From the IMG/VR virus record IMGVR_UViG_2541047719_000002, positions 1-43,543 of that record: a stretch of 43,543 nucleotides of DNA, one strand, 5' to 3'. A model generated the notes under the pieces. The model worked only from the letters and a program-made list of their open reading frames with translations, searched no databases and was not told the DNA's origin. The stretch is from a virus (Duplodnaviria > Heunggongvirae > Uroviricota > Caudoviricetes). The stretch's first letter is position 1. Every line of letters begins with the position of its first letter. The position numbers and the translations under genes were made by a program. Below, piece after piece: positions 1,331-41,738 of this stretch.

Positions 1331-1345
1331 GCTTTTTTATACTAA
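1331..1345. repeat. attL: attL core (15-bp lambda att core GCTTTTTTATACTAA), followed by lambda P' arm
   Basis: Exact 15-mer identical to the copy at 41724..41738; flanked left by host sequence and right by lambda P' arm-like sequence leading into int. Confidence 0.85.
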
Positions 1346-1418
1346 GTTGGCATTATAAAAAAGCATTGCTTATCAATTTGTTGCAACGAACAGGTCACTA
1401 TCAGTCAAAATAAAATCA

Positions 1419-2489
1419 TTATTTGATTTCAATTTTGTCCCACTCCCTGCCTCTGTCATCACGATACTGTGATGCCATGGTGTCCGACTTATGCCCGAGA
1501 AGATGTTGAGCAAACTTATCGCTTATCTGCTTCTCATAGAGTCTTGCAGACAAACTGCGCAACTCGTGAAAGGTAGGCGGATCCCCTTCGAAGGAAAGAC
1601 CTGATGCTTTTCGTGCGCGCATAAAATACCTTGATACTGTGCCGGATGAAAGCGGTTCGCGACGAGTAGATGCAATTATGGTTTCTCCGCCAAGAATCTC
1701 TTTGCATTTATCAAGTGTTTCCTTCATTGATATTCCGAGAGCATCAACATGCAATGCAGTTGGGATGGCAATTTTTACGCCTGTTTTGCTTTGCTCGACA
1801 TAAAGATATCCATCTACGATATCAGACCACTTCATTTCGCATAAATCACCAACTCGCTGCCCGGTAACAACAGCCAGTTCCATTGCAAGTCTAAGCCAAC
1901 ATGGTGATGATTCTGCTGCTTGATAAATTTTCAGGTATTCGTCAGCCGTAAGTCTTGATCTCCTTACCTCTGATTTTGCTGCGCGAGTGGCTGCGACCGG
2001 GTTTGTTGTTATATGGCCTTCAGCTATAGCCTCTCGGAATGCATCGCTCAGTGTTGATCTGATTAACTTGGCTGATGCCGACTTGCCCTCGTCTATGTAT
2101 CCATTGAGCATTGCCGCAATTTCTTTTGTGGTGATGTCTTCAAGTGGAGCATCAGGCAGACCCCTCCTTATTGCTTTAATTTTGCTCATGTAATTTATGA
2201 GTGTCTTCTGCTTGACTCCTCTGCTGGCCAGGATTTTTTCGTAGCGATCAAGCCATGAATGTAACGTAACGGAATTATCACTGTTGATTCTCGCTGTCAG
2301 AGGCTTGTGTTTGTGTCCTGAAAATAACTCAATGTTGGCCTGTATAGCTTCAGTGATTGCTATCCTCCTGTCTCGGCCTAATCCAAACTCTTTACCCGTC
2401 CTTGGGTCCCTGTAGCAGTAATATCCATTGTTTCTTATATAAAGGTTAGGGGGTAAATCCCGGCGCTCATGACTTCGCCTTCTTCCCAT
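1419..2489 (-). CDS. int: Integrase, tyrosine recombinase (lambda Int)
   Basis: 356-aa ORF recalled as essentially identical to lambda Int (MGRRRSHERRDLPPNLYIRNNGYYCYRDPRTGKEF...); adjacent to attL; ATG at 2487-2489. Confidence 0.95.
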   Translation of the reverse strand: MGRRRSHERRDLPPNLYIRNNGYYCYRDPRTGKEFGLGRDRRIAITEAIQANIELFSGHKHKPLTARINSDNSVTLHSWLDRYEKILASRGVKQKTLINYMSKIKAIRRGLPDAPLEDITTKEIAAMLNGYIDEGKSASAKLIRSTLSDAFREAIAEGHITTNPVAATRAAKSEVRRSRLTADEYLKIYQAAESSPCWLRLAMELAVVTGQRVGDLCEMKWSDIVDGYLYVEQSKTGVKIAIPTALHVDALGISMKETLDKCKEILGGETIIASTRREPLSSGTVSRYFMRARKASGLSFEGDPPTFHELRSLSARLYEKQISDKFAQHLLGHKSDTMASQYRDDRGREWDKIEIK

Positions 2490-2685
2490 TTCTGATCCTC
2501 TTCAAAAGGCTACCTGTTACTGGTCGATTTAAGTCAACCTTTACCGCTGATTCGTGGAACAGATACTCTCTTCCATCCTTAACCGGAGGAGGGAATATCC
2601 TGCATTCGCGCACCCATCGACGAACTGTTTCAAGGCTTCTTGGGCGTCGCTGGCGAGCGTTCCACTCCTGAAGTGTCAAGTACAT
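2467..2685 (-). CDS. xis: Excisionase (lambda Xis), 72 aa
   Basis: Translation from internal ATG (MYLTLQEWNARQRRPRSLETVRRWVRECRIFPPP...) recalled as lambda Xis; 3' end overlaps int start by 23 nt as in lambda; the longer 102-aa ORF in the track is an upstream extension. Confidence 0.9.
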   Translation of the reverse strand: MYLTLQEWNARQRRPRSLETVRRWVRECRIFPPPVKDGREYLFHESAVKVDLNRPVTGSLLKRIRNGKKAKS

Positions 2686-2805
2686 CGCAAAGTCTCCGCA
2701 ATTACACGCAAGAAAAAGCCGCATTGATGCGGCGATGGTAGGTCTGGATATCATTGAGCAATGAACAGGCCTCATCGAGTATGAGGCGGTGTGATTTCTT
2801 TATTT

Positions 2806-3027
2806 TCACTCTTTATGTTTGTCAGTGAATGGTTTCTCCATCTCCATTAATGCCTTATTCATCTCATTTCGTAACTCTATAGCCATCCTGACGGCTTCAA
2901 CCTGTGCAGGATGTCGGTTAATTGCTGGAGAATATCGTCTGGAGCGAAGGATTGAGAAAACAAAGATAATGCAAGCAACTATCTGAATTGCATTGCATAT
3001 TATTGATACAATGTGAATTGCAGCCAT
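2806..3027 (-). CDS. Hypothetical small membrane protein
   Basis: 73-aa ORF with ATG start and hydrophobic N-terminal segment; position in early-left accessory region. Confidence 0.4.
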   Translation of the reverse strand: MAAIHIVSIICNAIQIVACIIFVFSILRSRRYSPAINRHPAQVEAVRMAIELRNEMNKALMEMEKPFTDKHKE

Positions 3028-3037
3028 CTACTACCCC

Positions 3038-3061
3038 AAATAAAAAACCGCCATCAGGCGG
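3038..3061 (-). terminator. Rho-independent terminator (minus strand)
   Basis: Minus-strand hairpin CCGCCTGATGGCGG followed by TTTTTTATTT, immediately downstream of the 3105..3416 gene. Confidence 0.5.
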
Positions 3062-3104
3062 ATTGGTGTTCTTTCAGTTCTTCAATTCGAATGTTGGTTA
3101 CGTC

Positions 3105-39303: not shown

Positions 39304-39403
39304 CAGATAACCAACGCAACTACCCAGCTTCGGCTGGGTTTTTTTATGCCCAAAATTCACCGTAGCCCCGCTGCGGAGATTCCTTGTATCTGGAGCAAAT
39401 CAA

Positions 39404-41332
39404 ATGACAGACATTACAGCCAATGTTGTAGTTAGCATGCCTTCGCAACTCTTCACTATGGCACGTTCTTTTAAAGCCGTAGCCAATGGAAAAATTTATA
39501 TCGGTAAAATTGACACTGACCCGGTAAATCCTGAAAACCAGATTCAGGTTTATGTAGAGAACGAAGACGGTTCTCACGTTCCTGTTTCGCAACCAATCAT
39601 TATTAACGCTGCTGGTTATCCGGTATACAACGGACAGATTGCCAAGTTTGTAACCGTGCAAGGCCATTCTATGGCTGTTTACGATGCTTATGGGGCGCAG
39701 CAGTTCTATTTTCCTAATGTGCTTAAGTATGATCCGGATCAGCTAAAAATACTTCTAGGATCTGCAGGTGGTGCGCAATATATAGGAACAACAAAAGGTA
39801 TACTTCAAGATGTTATTGACCACATAAAGATTCCTATTGATAAATACGAATTCATCATTCCAGATGATTTCTCATCTTTTGATGAGTTAGCAATGTACCT
39901 TAAAGATTATTATTATGATGGTATTCAGGTTGTAGTTAGAGTTAAGGCAGGAATATACACTTGTACAAATAGCCTTAATAATCTGTTTGGTTCTCAGTGG
40001 GGGTTTGGAAGGATTAAGTTTATTGGTGATGGAATTGATTCAACAACAATTCAGTTTTTTAAATGCGATGGCATTTATTCTGGTCTTGGAATGTCATTTG
40101 GATATGCACCTCAGTTTCCAGTGAGTGGTGGTGATATAATACCAATATTTAGTAATTTAACCATATCAGGAATTGACAGAGATTCAGGAATTGATGATCC
40201 ATATCTTGATTCAATGGGGGTAAGGGCGTTCGACGGCGGGGTTGTTGTACTGGATGAAAGCGTAAGAATAACTCAGTTTTCCCGGTGTGGAGTTATGGCT
40301 GAGAGGCATGGTATAGCTTTTGTTCCTGGGGTTAAAGTCGATACTACAGGTTCTGATTGTTTCGCTGCCTCTGAAGGTGGTTATATCTATTGCCCAGACT
40401 CTACAGCAAGCAACCCGAAAGGTCATTGCTACATCGCATATTCTGGAGGGCAGCTTTATATGCCTAACTGTATTGCCCAGAACGCAGAGACACACAATTC
40501 GTCAAATGTAGGGGGATCTGGTCTTGTGTTGACCGGAAGCAGTTACGCTTACGCTATTAATCTTAAAACTAAAAACAATGCTCAACGTGGAATTAGTGTG
40601 GCGTTAGGGTCTTTTCTACGAGCTGACGGGTTTACTGAGAGTGAAAATATTCTACCTGTGACTGTTTCGCAGGATTCCACGTTGGTTTCTCCAAATTGCA
40701 CAATAAACAAACCAGATGCTCTTGCGCTTTTAATTGAGAAAGGAGGAAAGGCATTTTTCCAGGTGGCAACAACTGATAAATTTACTATGTATGGTAGAGC
40801 AACAGTACAGTCAATGGGGGTTCTTCATGCACCAGATGGCGACATAACGAACAGTTCAGGCAACTCAATATCTGCAATTAACTCAACAGTTGACGTTGAC
40901 AGAACAACTTTCCATGGTTCTCCTGCTGTAGCTATCTATGCCATGGATGGAGCGATGGTTAAATGTAGAAATGGAGAATCTCAGACAACTACAGGGACAA
41001 CAATTATTGCTCAAAATGCAAAGGTTATCGCTGATGGCTTTAAGGTAAAAGGAAATCCATCAATAGGGTTTAGAGCAACTATGTCTGGAATAATTTCTGC
41101 GAAAGACACATCAGTTATCAAGGCCGGTCAATATGGTTACTTTTCTGAAAATATGGGGGCATTTATTGATGCTACAAGTGCTACAGTAGGAGATGCTTTC
41201 TCTGGTTTTAAAGCAATAAACGGAGCCAGAATTAATGCTACGCAATCAGATGCTACAGGATCATATACAGGAGGTGCTTATAGCCCATCAGTAAATTTAG
41301 CAGATGAAAAACTAACAATAATAATAAAGTAA
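39404..41332 (+). CDS. Tailspike protein (P22-type N-terminal head-binding domain, divergent receptor-binding domain)
   Basis: 642-aa ORF; N-terminal ~110 aa matches the conserved P22/Sf6/HK620 tailspike head-binding domain as recalled; remainder is Gly/Ser/Thr-rich and visibly AT-richer DNA. Confidence 0.85.
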
Positions 41333-41422
41333 GCAATATGCTATAGTTCATGACTTATTAATGATAACTATATGCACAAAGCTTTGCACTTGATTGCAAT
41401 GCTTTGTGCCATTCTATAGTTA

Positions 41423-41444
41423 AGGTGGATTACTCCACCTTTTC
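41423..41444 (+). terminator. Candidate terminator after tailspike
   Basis: AGGTGGA-TTAC-TCCACCT hairpin followed by TTT. Confidence 0.4.
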
Positions 41445-41542
41445 ATCAATCCAGTCCGCCCACCACTGCATCATTTGCTCTGCGCTTATCGAGATACTGA
41501 GCATGGTTGTAAATTCAACTAACCCAGTGAGTTGACAAAAAA

Positions 41543-41576
41543 TTAGCGCAAGAGGACAAAAATCACCTTGCGCTAA
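41543..41576 (+). promoter_or_regulatory. sib: sib/tI-like retroregulation hairpin (lambda P-arm side)
   Basis: Inverted repeat TTAGCGCAA...TTGCGCTAA with 16-nt spacer; sequence context matches recalled lambda sib region just left of attP. Confidence 0.5.
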
Positions 41577-41723
41577 TGCTCTGCCTCAGGTCACTAATAC
41601 TATCTAAGTAGTTGATTCATAGTGACTGGATATGTTGTGTTTTGTAGTATTATGCAGTCTATTATTTAGACCAAATCTTTCATAACATATTGATATTTAC
41701 AGTGTTTTCTGTTTCTCGTTCAG

Positions 41724-41738
41724 CTTTTTTATACTAAC
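41724..41738. repeat. attR: attR core (GCTTTTTTATACTAA), preceded by lambda P arm and followed by host B' sequence
   Basis: Identical 15-mer to attL core; followed by CTTGAGCGAAACGGGAAGG. Confidence 0.85.

Follow-up and report, generated by a model that had tools for sequence, protein, structure and literature searches.

A probably complete Lederbergvirus prophage with HK022-type immunity and a relic N gene at the lambda attachment site of Escherichia coli

Introduction

Can a lambdoid prophage that has lost most of its N gene still be a functional, inducible phage? The question is raised by a viral element in a 43,543-nucleotide stretch of DNA (the window; IMG/VR record IMGVR_UViG_2541047719_000002), in which the original prediction saw lambda integration and late-control modules joined to a P22/Sf6-like podovirus virion and, given a disrupted N-like gene, found it unclear whether the prophage is inducible. 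Comparison with characterised phages suggests another answer. The element is probably a complete and functional temperate P22-like podovirus prophage (genus Lederbergvirus) of Escherichia coli, integrated at the lambda attB, in which early antitermination would be driven by put RNAs rather than by an N protein.

Boundaries, integration and the early-left region

The 40.4-kb prophage (positions 1331-41737) lies between ybhC (1-1284) and ybhB (41828-42304), the lambda attB locus, and is bounded by two exact copies of the lambda 15-bp att core, GCTTTTTTATACTAA. This sequence occurs exactly twice in the window, while no occurrence is expected by chance. The left copy (1331-1345, plus strand) is the attL core (B-O-P') and is contiguous with sequence matching lambda from position 27724 onward. 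The right copy (41723-41737, plus strand) is the attR core (P-O-B'); the sequence after it is that of the B' arm, CTTGAGCG, in contrast to GTTGGCAT in attP. The boundaries proposed previously agree with these cores within one base.

The integration genes are read from the minus strand. int (1419-2489) encodes a lambda-type tyrosine integrase of 356 amino acids, which over 100% of its length is 99% identical to Int of lambda, HK97, JEP4 and Huey, and xis (2467-2685; 72 amino acids) is 99-100% identical to its counterparts in the same four phages. The att/int/xis block as a whole (1331-2733) shares 98.1% nucleotide identity with lambda. At the opposite end, the P arm (41533-41741) is 87.6% identical to lambda, 88.9% to HK97 and 90.6% to Huey; the arm-type sites P1 and P2 (GGTCACTAAT and ATAGTGACTG) are unaltered in the alignment, and the sib/tI retroregulation hairpin (41534-41583, minus strand; predicted fold -31.1 kcal/mol, z = -5.3) is conserved with lambda and with the annotated sib of HK97. 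Integration and excision would accordingly resemble the lambda/HK97 int-xis-attP system under sib retroregulation.

The genes that follow are likewise encoded on the minus strand. Early-left accessory (“ea”) genes (2806-6684), including those for DUF551, Ead/Ea22 and DUF2737 proteins, were assigned by PHROG and Pfam matches and show patchy similarity to Sf6, CUS-3, JEP4, Kapi1 and Huey. The recombination module abc2, ssb and erf (6695-8219), assigned by protein identity to isolated phages, is of the Sf6/Huey erf-ssb-abc2 type (Erf 99% to Sf6 and Huey, Ssb 99% to Huey, Abc2 96-98% to Sf6, HK620 and CUS-3). Next lie kil and cIII (8474-8745), Kil being 100% identical to Sf6, CUS-3, Kapi1 and HK97, and CIII 91% to Kapi1 and HK97. 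An HNH endonuclease reading frame of 175 amino acids (HNH1; 8745-9272) abuts the cIII start codon; it matches phrog_99 (1e-68) and Pfam HNH_3, plus AP2 under its gathering cut-off. About 580 bp stand here where HK97, taken as the empty site, has some 50 bp. ral (9502-9702) encodes a protein with 100% identity to lambda Ral.

Replication, late control and lysis

The replication genes (12580-14774, plus strand) encode an O-like initiator (273 amino acids) and a DnaB-type helicase (458 amino acids), both 99% identical over 100% of their length to O and P of HK97. Identity to P22 is 51% (gp18) and 90% (gp12), while in Sf6 P reaches 31% and O finds no match; the replication module is of the HK97/P22 type, its O and P being HK97-type, and the P22/Sf6 type assumed at first is not confirmed. 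The downstream nin region (14847-18664, plus strand) comprises ninB, ninE, an HK97 gp66-like gene, rusA and ninH, together with a C5 DNA methyltransferase gene (15938-16924), a third HNH gene (HNH3; 17065-17571) and a truncated ninF (17462-17632).

The lambda-type late antiterminator gene Q (18661-19284, plus strand; 207 amino acids) encodes a product identical to lambda Q and 99-100% identical to those of HK620, Kapi1 and HK97. PR', qut and the 6S leader to tR' (19327-19556, plus strand) are near-identical to lambda, so that the block from Q to the end of tR' (18651-19556) shares 96.8% nucleotide identity with that phage. The homology after PR' ends exactly at the end of tR'; a cassette of tRNA-Asn(GTT) and tRNA-Thr(TGT) (19559-19714, plus strand; ARAGORN and Rfam) takes the place of lambda 44783-44944. 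The same cassette is found in Kapi1 and Sf6, and the tRNA pair is of the phage-21/Sf6 type. The lysis genes S, R and Rz (19957-21204, plus strand; 107, 158 and 155 amino acids) follow, with Rz1 (20957-21163, plus strand; lipobox VVGC) embedded in Rz. S and R are 97-100% identical to lambda, Sf6, HK620, CUS-3 and Kapi1, Rz is 91-92% identical to HK620 and Kapi1, and S, R and the 5' part of Rz (19716-20984) share 95.7% nucleotide identity with lambda. From this arrangement we infer Q-driven late control: Q would antiterminate the PR' transcript at tR' and permit read-through into the tRNAs, the lysis genes and the virion operon.

Overall, int, xis, Q, PR'/tR', S, R and the sib-bearing P arm show 88-100% identity to lambda, and both nucleotide blocks and protein identities bear out their lambda-like character as originally proposed. 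The reported absence of rexAB and the b region also stands, as no homology to either was found in the lambda nucleotide comparison. Lambda (NC_001416) nevertheless matches only 10.6% of the prophage at ≥90% identity; the likeness extends to int, xis, the att core, sib, ral, ninE, Q, PR'/tR', S and R, whereas the virion genes, rexAB, N/nut, O/P and the b region of lambda are absent. The element is indeed a mosaic, but to call it a lambda x P22 hybrid gives a wrong impression, because P22 itself carries the same Q allele (gene 23, 98% amino acid identity), because the lambda-type S and R alleles are common to Sf6, HK620, CUS-3, JEP4, Huey and E212, and because the isolated phages JEP4 and Huey already join lambda-type int/xis to a P22-like virion. 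On the basis of these identities, the “lambda” late module is an allele set already present in P22 (gene 23), HK620, Kapi1, Sf6 and CUS-3.

Packaging, virion and secondary immunity

The packaging and virion genes terS, terL, portal, scaffold, coat, gp4, gp10, gp26, gp14, gp7, gp20 and gp16 (22279-36217, plus strand) are P22-like. The products of terL, portal, scaffold, coat and gp4 are 99-100% identical to those of CUS-3, gp26 is 98% identical to JEP4, gp14 and gp7 99% to Kapi1 and gp16 99% to E212. gp20, in contrast, has no close relative in isolated phages (at most 76% full-length identity, to E212). The earlier label of a P22/Sf6-like virion is therefore right as to P22-like and imprecise beyond that: portal, scaffold, coat and gp4 are of the CUS-3 type (99%), and where any match was detected they are merely 33-56% identical to Sf6 and 29-41% to P22. 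Packaging would employ an Sf6-type terminase, and the virion would combine CUS-3-type head genes with tail and ejection genes in P22 order.

The immI region (37864-39303) contains mnt (minus strand), arc and ant (both plus strand), which are 93-99% identical to Kapi1, and a sar antisense RNA (38357-38423, minus strand; Rfam sar, 71.6 bits). Ant is 54% identical to P22 Ant, and the region presumably provides secondary immunity of the P22 type. The tailspike (39404-41332, plus strand; 642 amino acids) joins a P22-type head-binding domain (Pfam Head_binding, 2e-67) to a divergent receptor-binding domain. Its C-terminal 490 amino acids are 62% identical to orf523 of phage K5; no close isolated-phage relative was found, and the sole other match in the phage collection was a short K5 fragment. 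The receptor-binding domain appears private to this prophage.

Relatives and integrity of the prophage

The best overall match is the Lederbergvirus Kapi1 (Escherichia phage vB_EcoP_Kapi1, MT813197), a characterised temperate phage (PMC8787464), which covers 53% of the prophage at ≥90% nucleotide identity. Kapi1 shares the block comprising the HK97 gp66-like gene, rusA, ninH, Q, PR'/tR', both tRNAs, S, R and Rz (97.5%), the genes from terS through gp10 (95.4%), as well as gp14, gp7, mnt, arc and ant. It differs in its argW site, integrase, P22-like c2-type immunity and the use of RecT instead of Erf, and its gp16, gp20 and tailspike are unlike those of the prophage. JEP4 (MT740315) and Huey (PQ850609), isolated phages of the same genus, possess the lambda-type int (99%) and xis, P arms with 86.5-90.6% identity and a P22-like virion with CUS-3-type head genes, the very architecture to which the original prediction drew attention, yet they carry an intact N, other immunity regions, a phage 21/Sf6-type Q and other tailspikes. 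Huey forms turbid plaques (PMC11990801), as expected of a temperate phage. HK97 (NC_002167), which is inducible with mitomycin C (PMC12671112), is 99-100% identical in int, xis, the att core, sib, cII, gp53, O and P, and 99% in Q, but is a siphovirus with other head and tail genes and a lambda-like immunity region including N. CUS-3 (CP000711), finally, has the same type of P22-like head cluster (terL, portal, scaffold, coat, gp4 and gp10 98-100% identical) and differs by its argW site, K1 endosialidase tailspike, other Q and intact N.

Together, 14 reference phages or prophages match 84% of the prophage at ≥90% identity. The replication, lysis, packaging and virion proteins each align over 100% of their length with a homologue from a phage isolate (Kapi1, CUS-3, JEP4, Huey, E212 or HK97), and neither IS elements nor frameshifts were seen in the corresponding genes. 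The prophage is apparently intact, and would be viable and capable of excision and induction.

An element that looks complete might nonetheless be grounded for reasons unrelated to N, such as a repressor inefficiently cleaved by RecA, decay of the P-arm sites needed for excision or a missense change in a virion gene. The P arm is just 87.6% identical to lambda, gp20 and the C-terminal domain of the tailspike have no close relatives in isolated phages, and recent mobility is undocumented, since no complete E. coli genome or phage record holds the same mosaic. We nevertheless regard such a defect as improbable, given that neither att core departs from the lambda sequence, the P1 and P2 sites are unaltered, Int and Xis match lambda at 99-100% identity, the S24-type C-terminal part of cI is retained, a second E. 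coli prophage encodes a repressor 100% identical to this cI, and no open reading frame is shortened in comparison with homologues in isolated phages.

HK022-type immunity and the loss of N

The central region with cI, cro, cII, pL, pR, putL and putR (10779-12441) shares 99.2% nucleotide identity with HK022, and its cI and cro have no detectable homologue in P22 or Sf6. The P22/Sf6-type immunity inferred at first is thus not that of the central region, and its P22 part applies to the secondary immI (mnt-arc-ant and sar RNA) only. The minus strand bears putL (10783-10845), which equals at every position the annotated putL of O276 (HK022 putL) and HK75, an HK022-type pL (10861-10889), located by promoter scan at the annotated -35/-10 of O276 pL, and cI (10964-11671). 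The HK022-type repressor (235 amino acids) is 98% identical to that of O276 and 100% to that of E. coli S1-CAM-01-C; it has an S24 peptidase-like C-terminal part, and PGAP labels the identical protein “LexA family transcriptional regulator”. On the plus strand follow pR (11692-11719; TTGACT-16-CATAAT), placed at the annotated O276 pR, cro (11751-11981; 99% to O276), putR (12006-12062), identical to the annotated putR of O276/HK022, and cII (12103-12399; 99% to HK97, 98% to O276). The likeness to HK022, O276 and HK75 resides in this immunity region, whereas HK022 itself belongs to the siphoviruses, differs in integrase and att site, and has nun downstream of putL. Induction of HK022 by UV may be poor.

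Further along the leftward strand from putL lies the relic of a P22 gene-24-type N gene (10058-10186, minus strand). As originally described, this gene is disrupted: approximately 43 C-terminal codons remain, interrupted by an in-frame TAG and lacking the arginine-rich motif, as judged from blastn matches and from comparison of the translation with P22 gp24, HK620 N and JEP4 N. The 5' part of N, nutL and nun are replaced by HNH2 (10188-10721, minus strand), an HNH_3-type endonuclease reading frame of 177 amino acids (phrog_99, 7e-66; Pfam HNH_3; 96% to UPF_BP1, 99% to S1-CAM-01-C). No Nun-mediated exclusion of lambda is to be expected, since the HNH gene and the N remnant sit in place of nun. 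The TAG indicates that the lineage does collect inactivating changes in unselected sequence, and other parts of the prophage may carry missense defects.

This module is not confined to the prophage. Salmonella phage UPF_BP1 (KX776161), which has been propagated lytically (PMC11054384), carries the ΔN-HNH2-putL block at 97.9% identity; it shares the order ral, N remnant, HNH2, putL and, at 95.3%, putR and cII, and differs by its host and its own repressor and Cro specificity. At 99.8% identity the block is also found in a thrW-integrated prophage of E. coli (S1-CAM-01-C), which has the same gene order but a P22-type integrase at tRNA-Thr, and in which the stretch equivalent to the N remnant is annotated by PGAP as a pseudogene. 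The 921-bp ΔN-HNH2-putL query is covered to at least 80% in six complete E. coli genomes, and in phage APC_JM3.2 putL is followed by a 27-codon N remnant without an HNH gene. The truncated N is probably a relic beside an inserted free-standing HNH endonuclease gene and harmless to the phage, because the HK022 put elements that it carries dispense with N.

Antitermination would be needed on the leftward strand, since three terminator-like sites (9833-9803, 9513-9492 and 9365-9348) lie between putL and cIII. HK022 lacks an N-like factor and achieves early antitermination independently of N via putL and putR; these RNAs act in cis, require no dedicated protein factor and remain associated with the elongating polymerase complex for 10 kb or more (PMC9378689). 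Neither putL (z = -0.39) nor putR (z = +0.61) of the prophage is predicted to fold more stably than shuffled sequences, and the case accordingly rests on identity to characterised elements, not on independent structural evidence. On this ground we infer put-driven early antitermination: upon loss of the repressor, the pL and pR transcripts would include putL and putR, and the nascent RNAs would bind the very RNA polymerase that makes them and render it terminator-resistant. Leftward transcription could then pass the terminators of its operon and reach erf, xis and int, and rightward transcription could extend to O, P and Q, in both cases without N protein.

The HK022-type assignment overturns what had been concluded from the broken N gene: N loss is no argument against inducibility, because HK022-type phages antiterminate by put RNAs without N and because UPF_BP1 and E. 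coli prophages carry the same ΔN-HNH-putL module. That the truncation of N, its in-frame stop, the lack of a nut boxA consensus near pL or pR and the concurrent absence of nun would leave a lambda x P22 hybrid cryptic or non-inducible is highly improbable, as putL and putR stand, identical to N-independent antiterminators, in their native promoter context, the ΔN module recurs in the propagated UPF_BP1 and in the phage record APC_JM3.2, and all other essential genes are full-length.

An ordinary new mosaic

We therefore consider it very likely that the element is a complete, functional lambdoid-mosaic Lederbergvirus prophage with put-driven early control, whose N remnant is a relic and not a crippling lesion. 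The whole-element comparison revealed no known phage with unbroken collinearity, and coverage of either half of the prophage stays below 80% in every phage record and complete E. coli genome searched. Judged by its alleles, however, every functional module is already known from other phages, as is typical of lambdoid mosaics, and the prophage is, by the same measure, a new combination of known modules, but an ordinary one.

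Boundaries and Chromosomal Site of the Prophage

The P22-like prophage spans 40,407 bp (1331-41737) and ends on either side in an exact copy of the lambda att core GCTTTTTTATACTAA. The two copies of this identical 15-bp core lie at 1331-1345 and 41723-41737, and none would be expected by chance. The left flank carries ybhC (1-1284, minus strand) and the right flank ybhB (41828-42304, minus strand), each recognized by an NCBIfam equivalog match, and several E. coli chromosomes match the right flank at 100% identity. Given the att cores, the flanking genes and the flank match to E. 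coli chromosomes, the prophage occupies the classic lambda attB between ybhC and ybhB in the gal-bio interval, in the orientation of a lambda prophage. The exact cores and the flanks agree with the limits set in the original prediction.

To the right of ybhB lies an IS200/IS605-family TnpB gene (42413-43543, plus strand; NCBIfam guided_TnpB, 369 bits), which continues past the end of the window. The open reading frame starting at 42413 was at first assumed to be bioA, an identity discarded in favour of the NCBIfam match to a TnpB RNA-guided endonuclease. Several E. coli strains share the ybhB-TnpB arrangement at 100% identity, and it is at least 80% covered in 342 of 5,426 complete genomes.

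A New Combination of Phage Modules

The prophage was compared, at the nucleotide level and gene by gene, with the phages lambda, P22, Sf6, HK620, CUS-3, HK97, Kapi1, JEP4, Huey, O276, UPF_BP1, HK75, E212, 720R6 and APC_JM3.2, and with one E. coli prophage. A panel of 14 of these references (all except HK75 and APC_JM3.2) matches 84% of the prophage at ≥90% nucleotide identity, and at the same threshold single phages cover 53% (Kapi1), 10.6% (lambda) or 5.3% (P22). The whole-prophage comparison proposed in the original prediction yielded no known collinear phage: among 50,697 phage records and 5,426 complete E. coli genomes, none covers at least 80% of either half, and the prophage is thus a new combination and no described phage. 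Segments lacking a ≥90% match to any of the 14 references (2792-3038, 3766-4551, 5680-6115, 15054-15387, 21610-21855 and 37541-37862) contain small open reading frames, which belong to PHROG families of unknown function or match no family.

Lambda-Type Integration and Late-Control Modules

Nucleotide and protein comparisons bear out the proposed lambda-like identity of int, xis, att, Q, PR'/tR', S, R and the P arm with sib. The att/int/xis segment (1331-2733) is 98.1% identical to lambda at the nucleotide level, with Int and Xis at 99% each at the protein level, and the P arm (41533-41741) is 87.6% identical. Within this arm, beyond attP, lies the sib/tI hairpin (41534-41583; -31.1 kcal/mol, z = -5.3), which is conserved with lambda and with the annotated sib of HK97. 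Int/Xis orthology, the core, the attB site and sib together make up a lambda-type site-specific integration module.

The segment from Q to the end of tR' (18651-19556) is 96.8% identical to lambda, with a Q protein at 100%, and the segment comprising S, R and the 5' part of Rz (19716-20984) is 95.7% identical. PR' through tR' is near-identical to lambda; the homology breaks exactly at the tR' U-tract and restarts 160 bp further on, the gap being filled, as in Kapi1 and Sf6, by a tRNA-Asn/tRNA-Thr cassette (19559-19714). The Q orthologue and its cognate PR'-qut-tR' region make up a lambda Q-type late antitermination module.

The same alleles recur among P22-like phages. The prophage Q is 98% identical to P22 gene 23 and recurs in HK620 and Kapi1, and S and R are shared with Sf6, HK620, CUS-3, JEP4, Huey and E212. 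JEP4 and Huey, phage isolates classed with Lederbergvirus, possess a lambda-type integrase (99% identity), in Huey along with an annotated excisionase. Huey has been described as a temperate isolate that forms turbid plaques, and the genus is noted for high mosaicism (PMC11990801). Furthermore, P22-like virion genes adjoin ybhB in 720R6 and in many complete E. coli genomes. By these comparisons, the lambda-type alleles are not foreign to P22-like phages.

Virion, Replication and Recombination Genes

The late operon (22279-36217) is collinear for 12 of 12 genes, namely terS, terL, portal, scaffold, coat, gp4, gp10, gp26 (needle), gp14, and the ejection protein genes gp7, gp20 and gp16, each of which matches Lederbergvirus isolates over its full length. 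The tailspike has a P22 gp9-type N-terminal head-binding domain (residues 1-113; Pfam PF09008 Head_binding, 2e-67). By its late gene order and its tailspike, the prophage belongs with the P22-like phages (Lederbergvirus), and a podovirus particle is predicted.

The origins of the individual virion genes are mixed. The terminase is of the Sf6/HK620/Kapi1 type, and portal, scaffold, coat and gp4 are 99% CUS-3-type, compared to 33-56% for Sf6 and 29-41% for P22 where any match is detected. We take these head genes to represent the CUS-3 subtype in the Casjens and Thuman-Commike classification of P22-like assembly clusters. Further downstream, gp26 matches JEP4 and 720R6, gp14 and gp7 match Kapi1, and gp16 and gp20 are 99% and 76% identical to E212, respectively. 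Compared with the phage collection, the tailspike receptor-binding domain (39764-41332, plus strand) has just one sizeable relative, orf523 from Escherichia virus K5 (AF322018), with 62% identity across 94% of the query; the only other match there is one short K5 fragment, and Pfam gives a weak beta-helix signal.

The recombination module Erf/SSB/Abc2 is of the Sf6/Huey type, and the replication genes are 99% HK97-type, with P22 gp18 and gp12 at 51% and 90%. The immI region is P22-style and comprises mnt, arc, ant and the sar RNA (Rfam, 71.6 bits). The alignments of all essential proteins are full-length, Rz1 carries a lipobox, and neither IS elements nor frameshifts were seen in essential genes.

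An HK022-Type Immunity Region with put Elements

The immunity region had been assigned to the P22/Sf6 type, an assignment that the comparison does not uphold: immC (10779-12441) is 99.2% identical to HK022, and no homologues of its cI or cro are detectable in P22, Sf6, HK620, CUS-3, Kapi1 or lambda. The cI and cro products are 98% and 99% identical to those of O276, an annotated immunity-region relative of HK022, and the operator-bearing intergenic DNA falls inside the 99.2% block.

The antiterminator RNA elements putL and putR were mapped using the annotated relatives O276 and HK75. The putL element (10783-10845, minus strand) lies shortly after pL and shows no difference at any position from the annotated O276/HK022 putL, and putR (12006-12062, plus strand), downstream of cro, is likewise identical to its annotated counterpart. 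The promoters pL and pR occupy the positions annotated in the relatives, and both elements are found in their native context. At gathering threshold Rfam reports only sar and the two tRNAs and no put match, and thus the assignment is based on alignment to annotated records. Minimum free energy folding of putL and putR yields the expected two-hairpin shape, with energies not significant compared to shuffled sequences.

The homology to HK022 stops 1-2 nt past putL. Downstream of putL, nun was not found, and its place is taken by the HNH gene HNH2 and a remnant of an N-like gene. By its cI/cro specificity and its putL and putR, the central immunity region is of the HK022 type. Terminator-like sites on the leftward strand (9833-9803, 9513-9492 and 9365-9348) would have to be overridden by a put-type mechanism. 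In HK022, putL is inactivated by point mutations such as U28A or G35A (PMC9378689).

Decay of the N Gene next to putL

The N-like gene is indeed disrupted, as originally noted. A P22 gene-24-type antiterminator is reduced to its final ~43 codons (10058-10186, minus strand, between ral and HNH2), and these include an in-frame TAG that separates RVSRAISLAGTR from KEVEGGAVCLPNVAIYSAGYRKSKQLTAR. The upstream sequence, including the arginine-rich RNA-binding motif, and nutL are replaced by a 177-aa HNH open reading frame (10188-10721, minus strand). No boxA consensus occurs in the 10-12.5 kb interval near pL and pR, nor is there a match to a lambda or P22 nut region, the nut positions being taken by the put elements. 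The prophage therefore has neither an intact N nor nutL/nutR, and lambda-type N/nut early antitermination is absent. The adjacent open reading frame 9830-10057 was considered as the C-terminal part of N and rejected, as it is a separate conserved small gene downstream of N (phrog_5305, 95% to a JEP4 open reading frame).

The broken gene had raised the doubt whether the prophage is inducible. As far as it concerns N, this doubt is not substantiated, since putL and putR are intact and antitermination in HK022 depends on the put RNAs alone, without an N-like factor (PMC9378689). For the same reason, the loss of N is no argument about viability. A literature search on the SOS inducibility of HK022-type lysogens gave nothing usable.

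Similar arrangements are found elsewhere. Salmonella phage UPF_BP1, which has been used as a lytic agent (PMC11054384), carries ral, a gp24 remnant, the same HNH gene and putL at 97.9%, as well as putR and cII at 95.3%. In the thrW prophage of E. coli strain S1-CAM-01-C the block ral-N remnant-HNH2-putL is 99.8% identical, and PGAP flags the N remnant as a pseudogene. A 921-bp query is covered to at least 80% in six complete E. coli genomes. In APC_JM3.2, putL is followed by a 27-codon N remnant and there is no HNH gene. The short C-terminal N/gene-24 remnants just 3' of putL lie at about 940-1100 in the APC_JM3.2 sequence and at 772-948 in the UPF_BP1 sequence. In view of its recurrence in UPF_BP1, the thrW prophage, the six E. 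coli genomes and APC_JM3.2, N decay beside put is a feature of the put module family. The N remnants beside putL in the window, UPF_BP1 and APC_JM3.2 suggest that backbones once dependent on N acquired put modules by recombination at a conserved junction.

HNH Genes at Module Junctions

Three HNH_3-type endonuclease genes, HNH1 (8745-9272, minus strand), HNH2 and HNH3 (17065-17571, plus strand, in the nin region), all belong to phrog_99 and are paralogous but diverged (37-40% amino acid identity); HNH1 has an AP2 match below threshold. Each is located at a mosaic junction, runs in the same direction as its operon and borders or overwrites the 5' end of the gene that follows (cIII, N and ninF, respectively). 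Empty sites exist for HNH1 at 25292-25342 of HK97 and for HNH2 in the putL-N' spacer of APC_JM3.2. In these features the three genes look like free-standing homing endonucleases. They could be active and make lambdoid module boundaries, with HNH2 co-converting put immunity into N-type P22-like genomes, a reading that we consider unlikely. If true, co-conversion by HNH2 would offer a mechanistic route from protein-based (N) to RNA-based (put) antitermination.

The nin region also harbours a C5 cytosine DNA methyltransferase gene (15938-16924, plus strand; Pfam PF00145, phrog_363 over its full length). A 269-aa open reading frame in another frame inside this gene (16071-16880, plus strand) matches PHROG families annotated as DNA methyltransferase, with phrog_1008 at 3e-23, and has no Pfam match; it could be overprinted, or these families could derive from genes called in the wrong frame. 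The ninF gene (17462-17632, plus strand) appears truncated or overprinted: its similarity to NinF is confined to the C-terminal part (about 34 residues in tblastn and 22 in the PHROG match), and its first ~36 codons lie over the 3' end of HNH3 in a different reading frame.

Proposed Induction Circuit and Implications

In the proposed circuit, a cI of HK022 specificity with an S24-type C-terminal part would repress pL and pR. Upon derepression, putL and putR would modify RNA polymerase and permit expression of the leftward genes from erf to xis/int and the rightward genes O, P, nin and Q. The lambda-type Int and Xis would excise the prophage at the exact cores; sib, which as in lambda lies apart from int in the prophage, would be unable to lower int expression after induction. 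Q would then act at qut in PR' and allow read-through of tR', the tRNAs, S-R-Rz/Rz1 and the P22-like virion operon, and an Sf6-type terminase would package the DNA. All parts of this circuit are identified and appear intact, their activities being predicted from homology.

The element is a genuine mosaic P22-like prophage with clear limits at attλ, and it appears intact. The original description was largely right, apart from the misassigned immunity type and the concern about N, which is answered by the put elements. Beyond correct annotation, the prophage matters little. A pseudogenised N should not mark a prophage as defective where put elements are present, and as these elements give no Rfam match at gathering threshold, completeness callers and human readers can miss them. 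Such put-type immunity modules circulate between P22-like prophages that occupy several different attachment sites.
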